A stretch of DNA of 64,000 nucleotides. Source: Escherichia phage Bf23. Below, one piece after another: positions 19,837-43,010 of this stretch. The translations under genes were made by a program, and so were the position numbers. Location: sequence record OR083247.1, one strand, 5' to 3'. A model generated the notes under the pieces. The model was given only the letters and a program-made list of their open reading frames with translations, did not search any database and was not told the origin of the DNA. Numbering within the stretch: the stretch's first letter is position 1; every line of letters begins with the position of its first letter.

Positions 19837-20250
19837 TTAAACTAGTTCGACATGACCGCCATCATAGGTACCACGTTTTATTTCATCGTGATAGTCTCCC
19901 GAAGCATTCCAATCAGCACCAAAACGAAGTTTAATGCCTAGCTCTTTACCAGCTTGTTCAAAAGCCTTTTTAACTGCCCAAAATGCTTCTAAGTCATTCC
20001 AATCAATTTTGCCATTAATATATGGAGCAAAATCAATAGCATCCCCAGTAATATGTTTGCTTTTACTAGGATCTTTTAGAAATGAAGTACCATTAGCAAT
20101 GTTCTGGGCACTTTGTGCTACTGTACGAATACCTTGCACGATTGTGAAATCATACGGAGATAGTTCTAAAGCCCTACGAGCTACTTTTTGTAGTTCGGGC
20201 TTAACGGTAGCTAATTGTTTTTCGCTATTTTTACCAAATTTAAAACTCAT
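19837..20250 (-). CDS. lys: endolysin, L-alanyl-D-glutamate peptidase (M15-like)
   Basis: 137-aa ORF, the size of T5 endolysin; motifs 'HITGDAIDF' and 'DGGHVE'. Confidence 0.65.
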   Translation of the reverse strand: MSFKFGKNSEKQLATVKPELQKVARRALELSPYDFTIVQGIRTVAQSAQNIANGTSFLKDPSKSKHITGDAIDFAPYINGKIDWNDLEAFWAVKKAFEQAGKELGIKLRFGADWNASGDYHDEIKRGTYDGGHVELV

Positions 20251-20957
20251 ATTGACCTACCTAAAGACCTCTGTTGTGGGGAACAGAGCTTTGCTAAATA
20301 TTCCTTGAACTGTTCAGAATCAGCTGTATCTACCGGATTATCTTTCCAAGCAATACCAATGTACCCAGCATAGATATTTTTTAGATTGAAGTATGGACAA
20401 GTGTATATGTAATTAAAAGTAACGTTTTTAAACGCAGGTATATTTAACCCCATATATTTATTTACTCTTACACTTAAATCCGATGCGTAGTTAAAGCCCT
20501 CTAAATGACGTCTGTATAATTCAGACGTTTTATTTACCGCTTTATCGGCCAAGTCAGCCCTATCTAATTGCGCATTACTTTCCCATGCAATAATATTGGA
20601 ATAATCATTGATAGCATCTGGTTTATACTTGACTACAAAAACAGCATCTGCACCCGTCTGAGAGAAGAGAACCATGCTCTTTTCCCTCGCCACATTAGGG
20701 AAGTTATCTATCCTCTGGGTTTGTAAATCCTGTAAAACTGCAGACGTGGAAAAAGTCTTTAAGAATGACATCACTTCACTAGTATTACTAACAAATAAGA
20801 AAATAATGACAGCAACTAAGATAGTTAGCAGACGTTTAAGAAGCGATGCTGGGTCTTTCGCTTCTTGGAGCAGTACTGTTAATAATTGTAAGAACTTTTC
20901 CAATTTGTAACCTCCTCTAACCAGTACCATTATACTAATTTTGGAGGAAGATTTCAA
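20247..20957 (-). CDS. putative holin / lysis membrane protein
   Basis: 236-aa ORF directly upstream of endolysin with one strong TM segment. Confidence 0.45.
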   Translation of the reverse strand: MKSSSKISIMVLVRGGYKLEKFLQLLTVLLQEAKDPASLLKRLLTILVAVIIFLFVSNTSEVMSFLKTFSTSAVLQDLQTQRIDNFPNVAREKSMVLFSQTGADAVFVVKYKPDAINDYSNIIAWESNAQLDRADLADKAVNKTSELYRRHLEGFNYASDLSVRVNKYMGLNIPAFKNVTFNYIYTCPYFNLKNIYAGYIGIAWKDNPVDTADSEQFKEYLAKLCSPQQRSLGRSI

Positions 20958-27282: not shown

Positions 27283-27299
27283 TAGCTCTCCTGTTTGGT

Positions 27300-27372
27300 A
27301 GTTAGTAGTGGATTTGAACCACTGTAGTCGCTCCGTATGAAGGAGGTGCATAACCACTCTGCCAACTAACTA
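27300..27372 (-). tRNA. tRNA-Met (anticodon CAT)
   Basis: hand-folded: perfect 7-bp acceptor AGTTAGT/ACTAACT, T-arm AGTGG-TTCAAAT-CCACT, loop TTCATAC; CCA not encoded. Confidence 0.6.
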
Positions 27373-27467
27373 TTATGTTTTACTAGACTAAGTAAGTATT
27401 CTTTGTACTCTTTAGACCAATTAGCTTTTTTAAACTTTCCTGGACGCATAGTCTTAATTCCTAGATT

Positions 27468-27544
27468 TGGTACTCCGGGAGGGATTTAAACCCCCGATCT
27501 CTCGGTTATCAGCCGAGTGCTTTAGATCGCTAAGCTACCGAAGT
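27468..27544 (-). tRNA. tRNA-Ile (anticodon GAT)
   Basis: hand-folded: acceptor ACTTCGG/CCGGAGT, anticodon stem CTCGG/CCGAG, loop CTGATAA, CCA encoded. Confidence 0.6.
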
Positions 27545-27545
27545 A

Positions 27546-27773
27546 TTAACATTTAATTGCAGAACGTTTACCATTTCTAGGCGCACCTGGAAGTCGTGCA
27601 CGTTCTGCCATTCTTCGCTTAATCTTTGAGATATTTTCTAGTGTTTGTTCTTCAGGCTTAATACCTGAAACACTACACCACTGATTACCATCCCATGCGG
27701 TAATGATCATAACACCATTACTCATGATCTTTTCTGTAAAAGTAATCCTCATTATAGCAACTCGTCTAAGCAA
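27546..27773 (-). CDS. hypothetical protein
   Basis: 75-aa ORF; start uncertain. Confidence 0.3.
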   Translation of the reverse strand: MLRRVAIMRITFTEKIMSNGVMIITAWDGNQWCSVSGIKPEEQTLENISKIKRRMAERARLPGAPRNGKRSAIKC

Positions 27774-28045
27774 GAGGTATAATGGAATTTAGCTTCTCCA
27801 GTCTTATCTATTTCTACCTCAGTTCGTGGTACTTGACGAACTACACCATGAATCATCTTATAGCGAACGCCTTTAGCTGGTTCATGATCTTTTGGAAATA
27901 CTTGTTTGACCGTTACTACTTTATACTCTTCACGCGGTGTTAATACAACTACTTGATCACCCTCTTTGATTTTCCAGGAAGATGGAAATTCATAGGTATA
28001 CCTTTGGCCACCAGTTTGGAATACTACAGAAAGATAACGTTTCAT
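27752..28045 (-). CDS. hypothetical protein
   Basis: 97-aa ORF with early promoter upstream. Confidence 0.45.
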   Translation of the reverse strand: MKRYLSVVFQTGGQRYTYEFPSSWKIKEGDQVVVLTPREEYKVVTVKQVFPKDHEPAKGVRYKMIHGVVRQVPRTEVEIDKTGEAKFHYTSCLDELL

Positions 28046-28076
28046 TTGGTTTCCCTCTCATTAATTTATATAAATA

Positions 28077-28105
28077 TTATAACAAGAAATAAGAGAGAAT
28101 GCAAA
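28077..28105 (-). promoter_or_regulatory. T5-type early promoter (-35 TTGCAT, -10 TATAAT)
   Basis: conserved cassette. Confidence 0.55.
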
Positions 28106-28119
28106 TGAATTTTTAAGTT

Positions 28120-28194
28120 TGGTGCTCCCACTAGGAATCGAACCCAGCTCAGATGCTTACAAGGCAACTGCATCGCCAACAATGCTTTAGGAGC
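28120..28194 (-). tRNA. tRNA-Thr (anticodon TGT)
   Basis: hand-folded: acceptor GCTCCTA/TGGGAGC, T-loop TTCGATT, loop CTTGTAA, CCA encoded. Confidence 0.55.
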
Positions 28195-28206
28195 GATAAT
28201 CCCATT

Positions 28207-28374
28207 ATTTCAATGGGATTTCTTTTTCAAATACAGGGGATTTATCTGACATTACTGTCATTGCCAACTGCTGAAGAAACTCGAAAGTTAGCTTTAAACG
28301 TTCTTCGCCTAATTCAACCTCAACGTATTTCTTTTGTTTGTCAACCTTTAATTTTAGGTTATCAGCCATCTTCG
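28207..28374 (-). CDS. small hypothetical protein
   Basis: about 55 codons read by hand beginning MADNLKLKV; not in the ORF track. Confidence 0.3.
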
Positions 28375-28583
28375 GATTCTCGTTGCTCAGCTACTGCTAG
28401 CCAGTCTGGTAAAAGAAACTTAGTACGAAACTCTTCATAAGATTCTTCTGGATAAAAGCTAAAACCTCCTTTCTCATCATTCAAGATAACAGAGCCGTCA
28501 GTTTGTTCATATGCTCGATATGTTTCTCCAATAATGATAACTCGCTTATCAGTACTTTTATTACGAAACTCAAAAACGTGCAT
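28362..28583 (-). CDS. hypothetical protein
   Basis: 73-aa ORF. Confidence 0.4.
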   Translation of the reverse strand: MHVFEFRNKSTDKRVIIIGETYRAYEQTDGSVILNDEKGGFSFYPEESYEEFRTKFLLPDWLAVAEQRESEDG

Positions 28584-28599
28584 AACGTTTCCTTAAAGT

Positions 28600-28675
28600 T
28601 GGAGCGGCTAGAGGGAATCGAACCCTACTCAGCGAGGCTTGGAAGGCCTGCGACACAACCCGTGTGCTTAACCGC
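28600..28675 (-). tRNA. tRNA, probably Gly (anticodon TCC)
   Basis: good acceptor GCGGTTA/TAGCCGC and T-loop TTCGATT; loop CTTCCAA; irregular D-arm. Confidence 0.45.
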
Positions 28676-28683
28676 TTATTGTT

Positions 28684-28759
28684 TGGCTGGAGAAGGAGGA
28701 GTCGAACCTACCATTAACGGAGTCAAAGGCCATTGTGTTAACCGTTACACTACTCTCCA
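28684..28759 (-). tRNA. tRNA-Gln (anticodon TTG)
   Basis: acceptor TGGAGAG/TTCTCCA, D-stem GTGT/ACAC, loop CTTTGAC; position 31-39 mismatched. Confidence 0.55.
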
Positions 28760-28765
28760 ATTATT

Positions 28766-28841
28766 TGGCTGGAGTGCCTGGGATCGAACCAGGAACCTTC
28801 GGAGTCAGAGGCCGACGATCTGCCAATTGATCTACACTCCA
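28766..28841 (-). tRNA. tRNA-Gln (anticodon CTG)
   Basis: perfect acceptor TGGAGTG/CACTCCA, T-arm CCTGG-TTCGATC-CCAGG, loop CTCTGAC. Confidence 0.55.
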
Positions 28842-28850
28842 AGAATGCTA

Positions 28851-29087
28851 TTAACTAGACACTGGTTCTGCTGGCTGAGATACGGCAGGCTGTTCTAATG
28901 TATCTGGTGCTGATACAGAGAAAAGAGCTTGTAATGCTGCAATATCACGCTCGTAAGTTTCAATACGAGTAGTAAGAGTATCTACCATCTGTTTATGATA
29001 GGCTAAGTTATTCTGAGATTCATCTCGAAGAGTTTGCAGTTCTGCAAGACGTGTTAACATAATTTCACTAATTAAAGCATTACTCAT
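28851..29087 (-). CDS. hypothetical coiled-coil protein
   Basis: 78-aa ORF. Confidence 0.4.
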   Translation of the reverse strand: MSNALISEIMLTRLAELQTLRDESQNNLAYHKQMVDTLTTRIETYERDIAALQALFSVSAPDTLEQPAVSQPAEPVSS

Positions 29088-37003: not shown

Positions 37004-37173
37004 TATTTCATCCCCAATGCTTGGTTAAAAGATTGTTCTGTCATAACTGCTGAGACTTTGGCGAAATCAAACTTTTTAGGGTTCGTAGTGATCTCAGCAA
37101 CGTTGGAAGTTTTAACAGTTTTCGTAGTACGAATACCGCGAGTGTTAACACCAATGACGATCAAGTTCTTCAT
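37003..37173 (-). CDS. small hypothetical protein
   Basis: about 56 codons, RBS 'aggggg', ATGA overlap with the upstream stop; read by hand. Confidence 0.35.
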   Translation of the reverse strand: MKNLIVIGVNTRGIRTTKTVKTSNVAEITTNPKKFDFAKVSAVMTEQSFNQALGMK

Positions 37174-37859
37174 AAACTACCCCCTTTCTGTACTATTGTG
37201 GCCCCCTCTTTCAAGAGGAATTCTTCTGCCTCTTCGGGGGAAATATTAAAGTATTCAGTAGATCCAGCAAATCCACTATAACCACAATTATGACTTTTAA
37301 AATACATATGTGCCTTCTTCTCTAAAGCAAGGGTTTCTGATTTAGAAGAGCTACCATATGTATAGTGGCCATAATACTTAGCTGTGGGATCCCCGGATGC
37401 AGTAATCAAATCCCTTAACCTACGAGCAGGAGAATTAGTAATTCCTATTTTTGTACCTAATGAACTAGTTATTATATAAAGTATCCCACCATCGCTCCAT
37501 ATATTGGAGCACTCAGGGCATCTATTACCCATATTTTTTATGGCACTAAAAGTGGTAATCCATACATGCCCCTTACTACAAGTAAGTTGTAGCTTAGAGT
37601 TATTATTTATATATTTGGTAATGGTGTAATATCCTAAACTACGCAAATATTCAGATACTTGTTCTTGAGTGTACCTAACATTTCCATAGCAGTAGGGACA
37701 ACCTCTTCCGTTCCTAATATTATTTAGGGTAGCATTAAAAACATGTCCATAGGTGCAACAGAACTGCATTTTAGTCCTAGTATTAGTATACTTATCATTA
37801 GTGAATAAGCCTCTACTAACTAGGTAACTCTCTACTTCTTCTTGTGTTAATTTTTTCAT
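37170..37859 (-). CDS. T5orf172-like domain protein with N-terminal Cys-rich zinc-finger repeats
   Basis: 229-aa ORF; 'GGILYIITSSLGTKIGITNSPARRL' shares the YxI...KIGxT...R motif of the T5orf172 paralogs. Confidence 0.5.
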   Translation of the reverse strand: MKKLTQEEVESYLVSRGLFTNDKYTNTRTKMQFCCTYGHVFNATLNNIRNGRGCPYCYGNVRYTQEQVSEYLRSLGYYTITKYINNNSKLQLTCSKGHVWITTFSAIKNMGNRCPECSNIWSDGGILYIITSSLGTKIGITNSPARRLRDLITASGDPTAKYYGHYTYGSSSKSETLALEKKAHMYFKSHNCGYSGFAGSTEYFNISPEEAEEFLLKEGATIVQKGGSL

Positions 37860-37870
37860 TTAATAAATTT

Positions 37871-38338
37871 TTAAGTTTTAGTGACAACAGGTTTATAAAA
37901 CGTATGTCCCTTAATCTTAGTTGTTTTCTTAAACTTCTTTGTCCAGTAAGGTTTATCTTTACCACTATGGAAGTATAAAGCTCCATGTGTAGGATCTTGT
38001 GGTAAATCAACGTAGTATATCACTCTAGCTAAATTCTTGGCGGTTTGCCAAGCCTCATCGGTTTTATCAACTTTTGGCCTCTTAGATACCCAAGAGAACT
38101 GGTTAGACTGATATACTACTTTACAGTAGGAATCTGGAAATTTGCCGGAGTTTACACGGTTTTTAGTAACATGTGCAATCGCCGTCATTCCCTTTATGCC
38201 CTCACCACGACTTTCGAAATAGATATTTTTAGCAATGCAATCTATTTCTTTTGCATCGTGCGATGCCTGACTACTAAAGCTGAAGGTAAGGGCAGCTACT
38301 AAAAGCAAAGCTGCCTTCATTCGTTTTACTCCTGCCAA
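37871..38338 (-). CDS. SleB-like cell-wall hydrolase with signal peptide
   Basis: 155-aa ORF; signal peptide 'MKAALLLVAALTFSFSSQA'; 'AIAHVTKNRVNSGKFP' resembles SleB/Hydrolase_2. Confidence 0.5.
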   Translation of the reverse strand: MAGVKRMKAALLLVAALTFSFSSQASHDAKEIDCIAKNIYFESRGEGIKGMTAIAHVTKNRVNSGKFPDSYCKVVYQSNQFSWVSKRPKVDKTDEAWQTAKNLARVIYYVDLPQDPTHGALYFHSGKDKPYWTKKFKKTTKIKGHTFYKPVVTKT

Positions 38339-38643
38339 TCGTATTCAATACGATTAGGGTTTTCTTTGTACCCCAAGTCAAGCAAATCATTACGCATAGT
38401 TTGCTTAGCTACGGGATTCGAGGTTACTAGTACCACTTTCTTTGGTCTCTGCCCAAATTCTAAGAGTAAACGAAGAATTTGATAACCTTCCATACCATCT
38501 ACAGCCAAATCGTTATCGAAATAAACAAAATGGCCAGTGGTATCAGTCTTATTCAGAAACTCAACAGCGGCTTCTGGGGTTCGAATGATAATGTCCATTC
38601 CGTGAAGATTACGCACATCATCAATCAAAATGTGAAAAGTCAT
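38326..38643 (-). CDS. hypothetical protein
   Basis: 105-aa ORF. Confidence 0.45.
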   Translation of the reverse strand: MTFHILIDDVRNLHGMDIIIRTPEAAVEFLNKTDTTGHFVYFDNDLAVDGMEGYQILRLLLEFGQRPKKVVLVTSNPVAKQTMRNDLLDLGYKENPNRIEYDWQE

Positions 38644-38673: not shown

Positions 38674-38702
38674 ATTATACAGAGAACTTAATAAATTAGC
38701 AA
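38674..38702 (-). promoter_or_regulatory. T5-type early promoter (-35 TTGCTA, -10 TATAAT)
   Basis: conserved cassette. Confidence 0.55.
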
Positions 38703-39085
38703 ATACATTTTTAAATTGTGAAACTAGTAAACCGATAAACAGCCTAGAGGCGCCACAGGCCATATCTTACGAGCCATGTACCTTTGATCTAGGGTTTGAA
38801 TCATCAACGAATACTTTGCATCTTTTAGCTTTAGAAGTTTAGAAGTTTGAGTTCTTTAAACTTTTCAGCTTTCATACTTAAATGTTGATCTTTGAAGTTG
38901 TGTCGGTAATATCAACGACTCTTTGTTTTTACGTGTCAGATTAAATGTCTGATGTAATAAACATAATCTCCAATAGATTATACTTTATAGTATGGTTAGC
39001 GGTCTTATTTAACCTCGTATTTCAACCGCTGCTGCGAGGTAAGATGCTTGGGCTTTCGTCTACCGATTTACTAGCTTTTAAATTA

Positions 39086-39724
39086 TTACTCTACTTCAAT
39101 GAAAGTAGAGGCGTTAGACTCGGACAGAACAAAATCAACATTTGTTGCAAAGTCCTGGTATTCCTCGTCATGCTGTTTAATCAGCTTCTCCAGTTCCAGC
39201 GGATCAATCAAGAATGGAGTATTCTTGAGTTCCAACAGGTTGAGCTGCATTTTAACTTCATCTTCGGAAGTTTTCTTATCGCGGGTAGCCATGCTATCCT
39301 GCAAACGCTCATATTTAGCATCAAACTGTGCTTTCTGCGTATTAAACTTAACCGTAGCGGCATGGAACTGCTTACGCATATTAGCCAGCAACTGAGCTTT
39401 AAGCTCCATAGAACGTTTAGCTTCAATTGCTTCTGCAACAGTCATTTTACGAGAACCAATCTCAACGATTGTTTCCGCATTGCTCTTAATCAAAGCAGCT
39501 TTGATTCGGTCACGCTGGGACATCATATCCAGCAGAGACTGGAAATCTGTCTTAATACGATTAGACAGATCTTCTACTTCGATTGCAGCGCCAACTACAA
39601 CCTGGTTTTTATCCTTACCCTCACCAACAGCGATCAGAAGCTGTTGTTCAGTAGCTTTACGGATTTTAGCTTCCAGAGATTTGATGGTTGCCAGAGCACG
39701 AGTTTTAGAAATACGAGTGGTCAT
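39086..39724 (-). CDS. coiled-coil protein
   Basis: 212-aa ORF with RBS, co-oriented with neighbours. Confidence 0.5.
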   Translation of the reverse strand: MTTRISKTRALATIKSLEAKIRKATEQQLLIAVGEGKDKNQVVVGAAIEVEDLSNRIKTDFQSLLDMMSQRDRIKAALIKSNAETIVEIGSRKMTVAEAIEAKRSMELKAQLLANMRKQFHAATVKFNTQKAQFDAKYERLQDSMATRDKKTSEDEVKMQLNLLELKNTPFLIDPLELEKLIKQHDEEYQDFATNVDFVLSESNASTFIEVE

Positions 39725-39776
39725 TGTTTCTTCCTTATATGAAGTTTAAGATTTGAATTTATTTAAAGTTGGCCTA

Positions 39777-41991: not shown

Positions 41992-42468
41992 TCACATCTC
42001 AGCAAGTTCTTGCTCAGTAATAACTGTATTACATAGTGCATCTACAGCTTCATTACCACTAATTCCTGAGTGCCCTTTTACCTTAATAAAAGTAGGATTA
42101 GTATTGTGGAAGTTAATGTATTGCTGAGTTAATTTAAATGCTTCTTGCCAAAGCTCTAGATTAAGAGGGATTTCACCATCTGCTTTCTTCCAGCCTTTCC
42201 TCTGCCAAGAAAACATCCAACTTTCCATACCATTTTTGCAATAAGCAGAATCAGTATAGATAACAATTGGTCTATTATCTTTTTTAACTGACCAACGTAG
42301 AGCCTCTACAATAGCCGTGAGTTCCATCTCATTATTTGTAGTTTTAGGACTATATCCAGATTTAGAACCTAGACGATCGTCGTTATCATCATAGACAATA
42401 AAACCCCAAGCACCTAAACCCGGATTGCCTTTACATGCACCATCTGTATATATATGAAATGTACTCAT
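41992..42468 (-). CDS. rnh: ribonuclease H
   Basis: 158-aa ORF; 'IYTDGACKGNPG', 'TNNEMELTAIVEAL', 'IYTDSAY' are RNase HI hallmarks. Confidence 0.7.
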   Translation of the reverse strand: MSTFHIYTDGACKGNPGLGAWGFIVYDDNDDRLGSKSGYSPKTTNNEMELTAIVEALRWSVKKDNRPIVIYTDSAYCKNGMESWMFSWQRKGWKKADGEIPLNLELWQEAFKLTQQYINFHNTNPTFIKVKGHSGISGNEAVDALCNTVITEQELAEM

Positions 42469-43010
42469 CTATTAAGTTCCTCTAATGTAGGATAATAGTT
42501 ATTATAAAATGTTTCTTCTACAGCATCTTTACCATGTAACTCATGTCGCAAGGTATTTGCTTTTAATACGGCGTTCTCTAAATCTAGATATTCGAATATT
42601 CCACCATAAATATTCTTACCCTCACAATTTATTATCTGTACTTGCCACTTTTGTAGCTGTTTATTCCAATGTACTCCTAAGTACCCTGATTTGCTAGAGG
42701 CAGTGCAGTTTCTATTATTAATTTGACTAGTAGATTCTCTTAAATTTTTCCATCTATTATCTGACCGTATACGATTTATATGATCTACTAAGTCAGGAAT
42801 ACTTCCTGTCATATACAGAAATGCCAGTCTATGGGCTAGATAATCTACCTTATCTATTTTTATAGTTATATAACCATCTTTTCTTAAATAGCCAGCAACT
42901 GCTCCGGCTTTACCTCCCCTACCTCTACTTATTTTATTAGTAAATATTCCAGTATCGGGATCATAATTTAGAAGTTCTTTTAATCTCTCTAGTGTCGGTT
43001 GTTTACTCAT
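42465..43010 (-). CDS. HNH endonuclease-like protein
   Basis: 181-aa ORF; 'DHINRIRSDNRWKNL' HNH-like plus AP2-like 'YLGVHWNKQLQKWQV'. Confidence 0.5.
   Translation of the reverse strand: MSKQPTLERLKELLNYDPDTGIFTNKISRGRGGKAGAVAGYLRKDGYITIKIDKVDYLAHRLAFLYMTGSIPDLVDHINRIRSDNRWKNLRESTSQINNRNCTASSKSGYLGVHWNKQLQKWQVQIINCEGKNIYGGIFEYLDLENAVLKANTLRHELHGKDAVEETFYNNYYPTLEELNR

Follow-up and report, generated by a model that had tools for sequence, protein, structure and literature searches.

The cell-wall hydrolase Cwh of Aeromonas phage ASG01 combines a 23-residue signal peptide with a Hydrolase_2 domain and, when over-expressed from a T7 promoter, lyses E. coli alone, with no holin or other phage gene supplied (Li et al. 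2024, PMC10975977). The C34A substitution abolishes lysis, R61A and C72A reduce it, and E42A reduces it significantly without abolishing it (PMC10975977). ASG01 Cwh, gp31 of phage pAh6-C and gp78 of Escherichia phage ST32, the last of which lies beside a holin and is annotated as an endolysin, are Chaseviridae Hydrolase_2 endolysins, each the sole annotated lysin of its phage. The homologues in Vequintavirinae/Certrevirus (CB7_83 and nomo_28) and in Pakpunavirus (CAb02 ORF33) are second wall hydrolases that stand beside a different endolysin. CB7_83, the rV5-type homologue of Certrevirus phage CB7, carries a signal peptide and was described as toxic in E. coli, 'data not shown' (PMC7344957). 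The wall hydrolase gp151 of PAK_P3 was proposed as the cause of the cell-wall precursor accumulation seen during infection (PMC4933390). Both the Vequintavirus and the Pakpunavirus copies have hydrophobic N-termini and are encoded in early/replication modules away from the lysis cassettes, the former adjoining rIIA/rIIB and the latter lying between ligase/dCMP deaminase and phosphohydrolase genes. The Pakpunavirus N-terminus, with a longer hydrophobic segment and no obvious cleavage site, is more anchor-like.

Holin-independent export through the Sec pathway is known from Lys44 of Oenococcus phage fOg44, which has a cleaved signal peptide, and from P1 Lyz and phage 21 R, which have SAR domains. 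All three serve their phages as main endolysin, with catalytic folds unrelated to that of the protein described below. Bacillus SleB, whose catalytic domain is represented in the PDB by 4F55 and 4FET, also bears an N-terminal signal peptide (PMC12331253).

The T5 member of the family has been in GenBank since 2005, and both the gene and its family assignment are already known. It is labelled 'sleb: spore cortex-lytic enzyme precursor' in AY587007, 'cell wall hydrolase homolog ... PF07486 ... COG3773' in AY692264 (T5p081) and 'endolysin' in NC_005859 (T5.083), under the protein accessions AAX12015.1, AAU05220.1 and YP_006911.1. The homologue in AKFV33 was listed together with lysozyme and holin in 2012 (PMC3326045), and in T5-like Salmonella phages Guzel et al. 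(2024) pointed to 'endolysins far from holin' that carry a SleB domain, and urged that they be tested (PMC11180984). Searchable full-text literature yielded annotations and remarks on the T5-type protein and no experimental study of it; a 2026 PNAS paper on T5 does not mention the gene. What we add here is incremental, namely a corrected start codon, a failed SleB equivalog test, a residue-for-residue mapping onto one mutagenised homologue, the export signal and cysteine pair found almost throughout the subfamily, and the near-core status of the gene in T5-like phages.

The window analysed here is a whole 64,000-nt stretch of Escherichia phage Bf23 (OR083247.1), a Tequintavirus-type genome (Demerecviridae). 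The 2 kb around sleB match 441 phage records, with 98% identity to Escherichia phage T5 and, over the full length, 93-94% identity to T5-like Salmonella phages. The hosts of close relatives are Escherichia and Salmonella. An intact minus-strand ORF at 37871..38338, with a mechanical start at TTG 38338, is by sequence the orthologue of T5 sleB (T5.083, T5p081, AAX12015). Three features define the gene and its 5′ end:

37871..38320, minus strand: CDS of a SleB-like (Hydrolase_2) pre-protein, 149 aa plus stop, supported by the ORF, Pfam PF07486 and identity to T5.
38329..38333, minus strand: Shine-Dalgarno sequence AGGAG, 8 nt before the ATG, read directly from the sequence.
38326..38643, minus strand: upstream gene, 105 aa, with a cREC_REC domain (Pfam PF20274, E 9.2e-15), orthologue of T5.084.

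The CDS shows 98% nucleotide identity to T5, and the identical 450-nt CDS is annotated in three independent T5 GenBank records. Translation most likely starts at the ATG at 38318-38320, giving a product of 149 aa. The AGGAG lies in the last codons of the upstream gene, whose TAA stop codon (38326-38328) lies between AGGAG and ATG. The TTG at 38338, from which the preliminary description had begun the reading frame, was rejected as the start, since no ribosome-binding site precedes it and it lies within the upstream gene; the ORF itself is real, and it is the 5′ end that needed revision. A chance match is excluded by the 98-100% identity to annotated T5 and T5-like genes together with purifying selection, seen as pairwise dN/dS values of 0.10-0.18 among this phage, T5, S113 and a Klebsiella T5-like phage.

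The preliminary description had proposed a SleB/Hydrolase_2-like wall hydrolase from the letters of the window, and the Pfam match, the PDB sequence matches and the fold of a predicted model all agree with this assignment. Residues 45-148 match Pfam PF07486 Hydrolase_2 with an E-value of 2.4e-25 and 89.5 bits against a cutoff of 27; the match is thus above the gathering threshold, and it covers the profile end to end (positions 1-100 of 100). The protein also matches PHROG 938 'endolysin' (E 4.7e-30). Sequence matches in the PDB are confined to 4F55 and 4FET, both SleB catalytic domains (E about 3e-8), whose YGESRGE aligns with YFESRGE of the phage protein, an instance of the motif Y-x-E-[SA]-R-G-E that the two share along with the catalytic-domain fold. 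An AlphaFold model built from 32 homologues has a pLDDT of 91.2 and a pTM of 0.82; in a Foldseek search of the PDB with this model, 4F55 and 4FET alone fall below E 1e-3, with TM scores of 0.71-0.80 normalised to the target. In a viral structure library, dozens of phage 'SleB/cell wall hydrolase' proteins match the model. Some of the matched SleB-fold domains are embedded in phage proteins of more than 1000 aa. By score, motif and fold, the sleB product belongs to the Hydrolase_2 family, with a lytic-transglycosylase fold of SleB/CwlJ type, from which we infer the kind of bond it would cleave. The residue most directly implicated in catalysis is encoded as follows:

38213..38215, minus strand: codon of Glu36, the predicted catalytic glutamate within YFESRGE, aligned with the SleB glutamate.

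The catalytic assignment of Glu36 is based on the SleB alignment and on published work (PMC12331253). Glu36 is invariant in all 32 homologues of our alignment and, like R55 and H139, in all of the best 151 representatives (at most 50% mutual identity to each other).

Kinship with Bacillus SleB proper is overstated by the name, because the catalytic domain alone is common to both. The TIGR02869 equivalog model gave 50.3 bits against a cutoff of 236.5, with profile positions 79-201 alone matched, and the protein was accordingly rejected as a SleB in the strict sense. The 149 aa hold one Pfam domain, with only 8 residues between the predicted cleavage site and Cys28; a peptidoglycan-binding domain is absent from the product, and no YpeB partner is found among the neighbours. 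The host forms no spores, and the muramic-delta-lactam required by Bacillus SleB is absent from E. coli murein, so the sleB product would have to act on a different substrate. A sporulation-related 'moron' was likewise rejected, the hosts being enterobacteria.

The N-terminus of the pre-protein is of the export type, and two cysteines in the mature part stand out in the alignments:

38264..38320, minus strand: signal peptide, residues 1-19 (MKAALLLVAALTFSFSSQA), by hydropathy and n-h-c layout.
38237..38239, minus strand: codon of Cys28, first partner of a predicted disulfide, by co-occurrence with Cys66.
38123..38125, minus strand: codon of Cys66, second partner of the predicted disulfide, invariant in the alignment of 32 homologues.

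Judged by rule-based inspection, the signal peptide opens with MK as its n-region, continues with a hydrophobic core of 13 residues (AALLLVAALTFSF) and ends in SSQA, followed by S20. Cleavage by signal peptidase I is predicted after Ala19, with S-Q-A at positions -3 to -1. Across 8 other T5-like sequences the -1 residue is always Ala and the -3 residue is Ser, Ala or Val, while the core is variable. The signal peptide named in the preliminary description is thereby borne out as Sec-type, on the strength of its n-h-c layout and the conserved small-x-Ala site. A lipoprotein was ruled out, as the N-terminus has no lipobox cysteine. Compared with phage S113, only 7 of 19 signal residues are identical, versus 119 of 130 residues in the mature part; such drift with preserved form is the pattern expected if the N-terminus is selected for its physical form alone. 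A hydrophobic N-terminus is present in 148 of the 151 best representatives, and Cys28 and Cys66 occur together in 150, the sole exception having neither. At the corresponding positions Bacillus SleB has Leu and Ser, respectively. The paired presence or loss of the two cysteines, together with the near-universal export signals, fits a periplasmic Cys28-Cys66 disulfide, and the sequence features make it likely that the product is indeed exported and cleaved.

The same residues allow a direct comparison with the mutagenised Aeromonas protein. pAh6-C gp31, the orthologue in a close relative of ASG01, carries all 11 residues at the published numbering, and aligned with it here are C28, E36, N54, R55, P62, C66, V68, V69 and S76, with an offset of 6. 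C28, E36 and C66-K-V-V of the sleB product thus correspond to C34, E42 and C72-G-V-V of pAh6-C gp31 (C-x7-E ... C-x-V-V). In its predicted signal peptide, cysteine pair and glutamate spacing, the sleB product appears to follow the exported Hydrolase_2 lysin pattern of ASG01 Cwh. Identity to the ASG01 type is about 32% over the N-terminal 82 residues, whereas the C-terminal half diverges; overall, the Chaseviridae endolysins (ASG01 Cwh, pAh6-C gp31 and ST32 gp78) are about 31-35% identical to the sleB product. They also differ from it in genetic context, the T5-type protein being a second hydrolase and not the sole annotated lysin. CB7_83, nomo_28 and CAb02 ORF33 are 36-41% identical to the sleB product, and their cysteines are placed differently. 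CB7 further resembles T5-like phages in encoding a T5-type M15 peptidase in addition to CB7_83, but its candidate holin overlaps the hydrolase gene, unlike the T5-type arrangement.

Within T5-like phages the gene is widespread, with orthologues in Tequintavirus and Epseptimavirus, and is under purifying selection. T5 sleB agrees with it in length and, the insertion described below aside, in its neighbours; only 4 residues differ between this protein and that of T5, and identical proteins occur in phages PNJ1902, EC100 and T5_ev219. Of the 1,278 phage records in which tblastn detects the protein, about 520 reach 60% identity or more; the M15 endolysin does so in 526, a practically equal number, which makes sleB nearly a core gene in T5-like phages. 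The family as a whole is very large: searching 1.84 billion representative proteins with a profile gave 33,908 clusters at E<=1e-3, of which 2,627 reach E<=1e-30, and the 151 representatives cited above are the best of these. Metagenomic copies, 41-48% identical, lie on phage contigs of 85-95 kb with RNase H, ThyX, phosphoesterase and dGTP-diphosphohydrolase-type genes as neighbours. A scan of bacterial genomes with one narrow peptide pattern gave only 24 loci, mostly in metagenome bins, and is little guide to cellular relatives.

The surroundings of sleB bear on when it is made and on whether it has a dedicated partner:

38674..38702, minus strand: sigma-70-like promoter candidate TTGCTA-17-TATAAT, from a consensus scan (10 of 12 matches).
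37175-37861, downstream of sleB: 687-bp insertion encoding a T5orf172/GIY-YIG-type homing-endonuclease-like protein.
42-49.5 kb, 4-11 kb upstream of sleB: genes for RNase H, thymidylate synthase, ribonucleotide reductase and PhoH.
27.3-34.6 kb, 3-10 kb downstream of sleB: 20 tRNA genes.

The stop codon of the cREC_REC gene abuts the ribosome-binding site of sleB, and the two genes are probably co-transcribed, with the candidate promoter probably driving the unit. This candidate occupies the position at which the T5 records place a putative early promoter, ahead of the homologous gene pair. The promoter and terminator scan found no enrichment (6 promoter-like sites versus 8.4 expected from shuffled sequence), so the promoter assignment rests mainly on the positional match to the T5 annotation. 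The earlier suggestion that the protein is made early agrees with the putative early promoters of the T5 GenBank records. The holin/endolysin pair, however, likewise lies in the early region (PMC3326045). The location of sleB had been described as a nucleotide-metabolism region; such genes do lie 4-11 kb upstream, but the immediate neighbours are of other kinds, namely the cREC_REC gene, the homing-endonuclease-like gene, DUF7616 and a YqeY-like gene. At the insertion site T5 has a 58-bp intergenic region that includes most of promoter P-D/E 33, which is replaced here. No gene stays next to sleB throughout T5, S113 and the Klebsiella, Serratia and metagenomic relatives, and a conserved partner or inhibitor gene was rejected for that reason. 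The ORFs adjacent to sleB include no membrane protein.

The lysis pair of the phage is encoded elsewhere in the window:

19837..20250, minus strand: canonical endolysin, an L-alanyl-D-glutamate peptidase (M15), matching PDB 2MXZ at E 6.6e-91 and Pfam Peptidase_M15_4.
20247..20957, minus strand: T-type holin adjoining the M15 endolysin (Pfam Phage_holin_T, E 2.8e-112).

The 2MXZ match agrees with the earlier identification of the M15-type endolysin, and the stated remoteness of sleB from this pair also holds, with about 18 kb in between (18,070 nt from the sleB start to the M15 endolysin start). A canonical holin-dependent endolysin was ruled out for the sleB product by its Sec-type signal peptide and the lack of an adjoining holin.

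The best explanation of these features, in which we place moderate confidence, is that the sleB product is an early, Sec-exported periplasmic enzyme that cleaves glycan strands and supplements lysis. Host RNA polymerase would transcribe sleB with the early genes, with the site ahead of the cREC_REC gene as its probable promoter, and translation would proceed from the strong ribosome-binding site. The signal peptide would direct the protein to the Sec translocon and be cut by signal peptidase I after Ala19, leaving in the periplasm a soluble, basic enzyme (about 15 kDa, pI about 9.7) in which the Cys28-Cys66 disulfide would form. From the periplasmic side, with no need of the holin, the enzyme would cut the glycan strands of ordinary host murein in an E36-dependent manner. 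It would thus not act as the main endolysin; adding a second bond specificity to that of the holin-dependent M15 peptidase, it would pre-weaken the sacculus and make lysis fast and complete. The behaviour of ASG01 Cwh and CB7_83 lends indirect support, by analogy, to a helper or back-up function in lysis. Such a function is speculative, as are the wall remodelling and superinfection exclusion that the preliminary description had also raised as roles. The chief weakness of the preferred account is that an active murein cleaver that is made early and exported freely should risk premature lysis, and the locus offers no explanation of how it would be restrained.

Only three other readings are serious rivals: a wall-remodelling effector, a back-up lysin and a SAR-type enzyme. 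An early periplasmic effector acting outside lysis, whose limited glycan cleavage loosens the sacculus and leads to swelling, a block of septation or a release of muropeptides that feeds host metabolism in the style of auxiliary metabolic genes, is a tentative alternative and distinctly the less probable. It would accord with the placement of such genes in early/replication modules and not in lysis cassettes in T5-like phages, Vequintavirus and Pakpunavirus, with the RNase H, ThyX and phosphoesterase genes around the metagenomic relatives, and with the proposal on precursor accumulation for PAK_P3 gp151 (PMC4933390), although gp151 is an analogue here and not an established homologue. Position says little on role, however, as the T5 holin and endolysin are also early (PMC3326045); the homologues that have been tested, CB7_83 and ASG01 Cwh, behave as lysins, and direct evidence for remodelling is absent for any phage. 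The lytic activity of ASG01 Cwh on its own (PMC10975977) could be read as the mark of a self-sufficient, holin-independent second endolysin that backs up a failing holin/M15 pathway, a reading also suggested by ST32 gp78 beside its holin and by the 'endolysin' labels of T5.083 in RefSeq and of PHROG 938. We regard it as doubtful: these labels are automatic and not experimental, essentially every T5-like genome keeps the full holin and M15 pair, and with an early promoter and a strong ribosome-binding site, a lysin that needs no helper would lyse cells before assembly. That problem of premature lysis would be solved if the N-terminus were an uncleaved signal-anchor that tethers the enzyme in an inactive state until the membrane is depolarised. 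Signal-type N-termini of Gram-negative phage lysins are often taken as SAR domains (PMC8223927), and the Pakpunavirus homologue, with its long hydrophobic segment, would suit such a tether. SAR domains are long, uncleaved and regulatory, whereas the sleB product has a 13-residue core, too short for a stable anchor, and a small-x-Ala cleavage site that is conserved in all its T5-like relatives, a combination typical of cleaved signal peptides; the N-terminal segment also contains no catalytic or regulatory residue, and a SAR-type enzyme is improbable.

Still less credence attaches to superinfection exclusion or competition, in which an altered wall would prevent later phages from injecting. The early and exported nature of the protein is all that speaks for it, and a loosened wall should favour incoming phages rather than hinder them. 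We know of no exclusion system that works by murein degradation, and T5 already blocks its receptor by means of the Llp lipoprotein. Least credible of all is a virion-associated entry hydrolase or an inactive relic. The SleB fold does occur inside phage proteins of more than 1000 aa that are probably virion parts, but the Sec signal peptide, the early transcription unit and the small size of the sleB product all fit poorly with such a function, and it is not among the four structural proteins identified in AKFV33; the invariant catalytic residues and low dN/dS oppose a relic. A broader and quite tentative proposal concerns the stand-alone SleB-fold enzymes, putatively Sec-exported and disulfide-bonded, which many unrelated virulent phages of Gram-negative hosts, among them T5-like, rV5-like and PAK_P1/KPP10-like phages, keep in early/replication modules besides a normal endolysin. 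They may form a distinct functional class of early periplasmic murein effectors, which would act well before lysis, for instance through sacculus remodelling or muropeptide release, under some restraint and would not be redundant endolysins.

Supplementary lysis by an early, exported glycan-strand cleaver thus remains the reading we prefer. Establishing the effect of the sleB product during T5 infection would sharpen our view of how lysis is controlled in a classic model phage. It would also help to put automatic annotation right, as RefSeq currently calls both T5 genes 'endolysin'. The cysteine pair and the export signal, finally, matter to those who produce such proteins as antibacterial enzymes.

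The features of the surroundings of sleB are as follows.

27296-34574, minus strand (all): tRNA gene cluster (20 genes) on the downstream side of sleB, at a distance of 3-10 kb
35527-36210, minus strand: free-standing HNH-type endonuclease gene with an N-terminal HTH domain, adjoining the tRNA cluster
37170-37859, minus strand: homing-endonuclease-like gene of the T5orf172/GIY-YIG type (229 aa), directly downstream of sleB
37175-37861: insertion carrying the T5orf172/GIY-YIG-type gene, from comparison with T5
38326-38643, minus strand: cREC_REC gene (cyclic-phosphate-processing receiver domain, 105 aa), directly upstream of sleB
38945-39742, plus strand: long ORF overlapping the following ORF on the opposite strand
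39086-39724, minus strand: long ORF overlapping the preceding ORF on the opposite strand
42465-43010, minus strand: free-standing HNH-type endonuclease gene, adjoining RNase H

The 229-aa T5orf172/GIY-YIG-type protein contains treble-clef zinc-finger and CapR-like N-terminal parts; the stop of its gene and the start of the DUF7616 gene overlap. The insertion that carries it replaces a 58-bp intergenic region of T5 that holds most of the annotated promoter P-D/E 33. In the T5-like phage S113, an HNH endonuclease is inserted just upstream of sleB, whereas the T5orf172/GIY-YIG-type gene lies downstream of it in the window. Because different endonuclease insertions flank sleB in the two phages, the locus seems to be a homing-endonuclease hot spot. 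The cREC_REC gene is probably co-transcribed with sleB; the two are not adjacent in Klebsiella and Serratia T5-like phages. According to the T5 record AY692264, the edge of the st0 deletion lies only ~250 bp past the sleB gene, and sleB is therefore located at the very border of the dispensable tRNA region, kept outside the deletion.

Several annotations in T5 and its relatives bear on these genes. In the T5 RefSeq record NC_005859 and in many T5-like records, automatic annotation gives the name 'endolysin' to the SleB-like protein as well as to the M15 peptidase. In other records the SleB-like protein goes under 'N-acetylmuramoyl-L-alanine amidase', a name that its fold does not suggest, or under 'hypothetical' or 'spore cortex-lytic enzyme precursor'. 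The T5 GenBank records also conflict over which of the two overlapping ORFs is the gene: the plus-strand ORF is gene T5p083 in AY692264, and the minus-strand ORF is a gene in AY587007 and NC_005859 (ORF080/T5.085). The RefSeq label of the latter, 'tail fiber protein', looks doubtful, since this early-region gene has no match in Pfam. The holin ORF (20247-20957, minus strand; 236 aa) has TTG as its mechanical start, and its Phage_holin_T profile match begins only at residue 21; the true start is therefore probably further downstream. An 'alternate transcript' is noted for the T5 holin in record AY509815.

Homologues of sleB are also present in Vequintavirus and Pakpunavirus (loci L007, 2402-2902, and L008, 2321-2881). 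The cysteine positions in both groups differ from the T5-type pair (Cys28/Cys66, a predicted disulfide), and the N-terminal hydrophobic segment of the Pakpunavirus homologue is longer than that of the T5-type protein and has no obvious cleavage site. Judged from these sequence differences, the disulfide pattern and export mode of SleB-like proteins may differ among phage groups.
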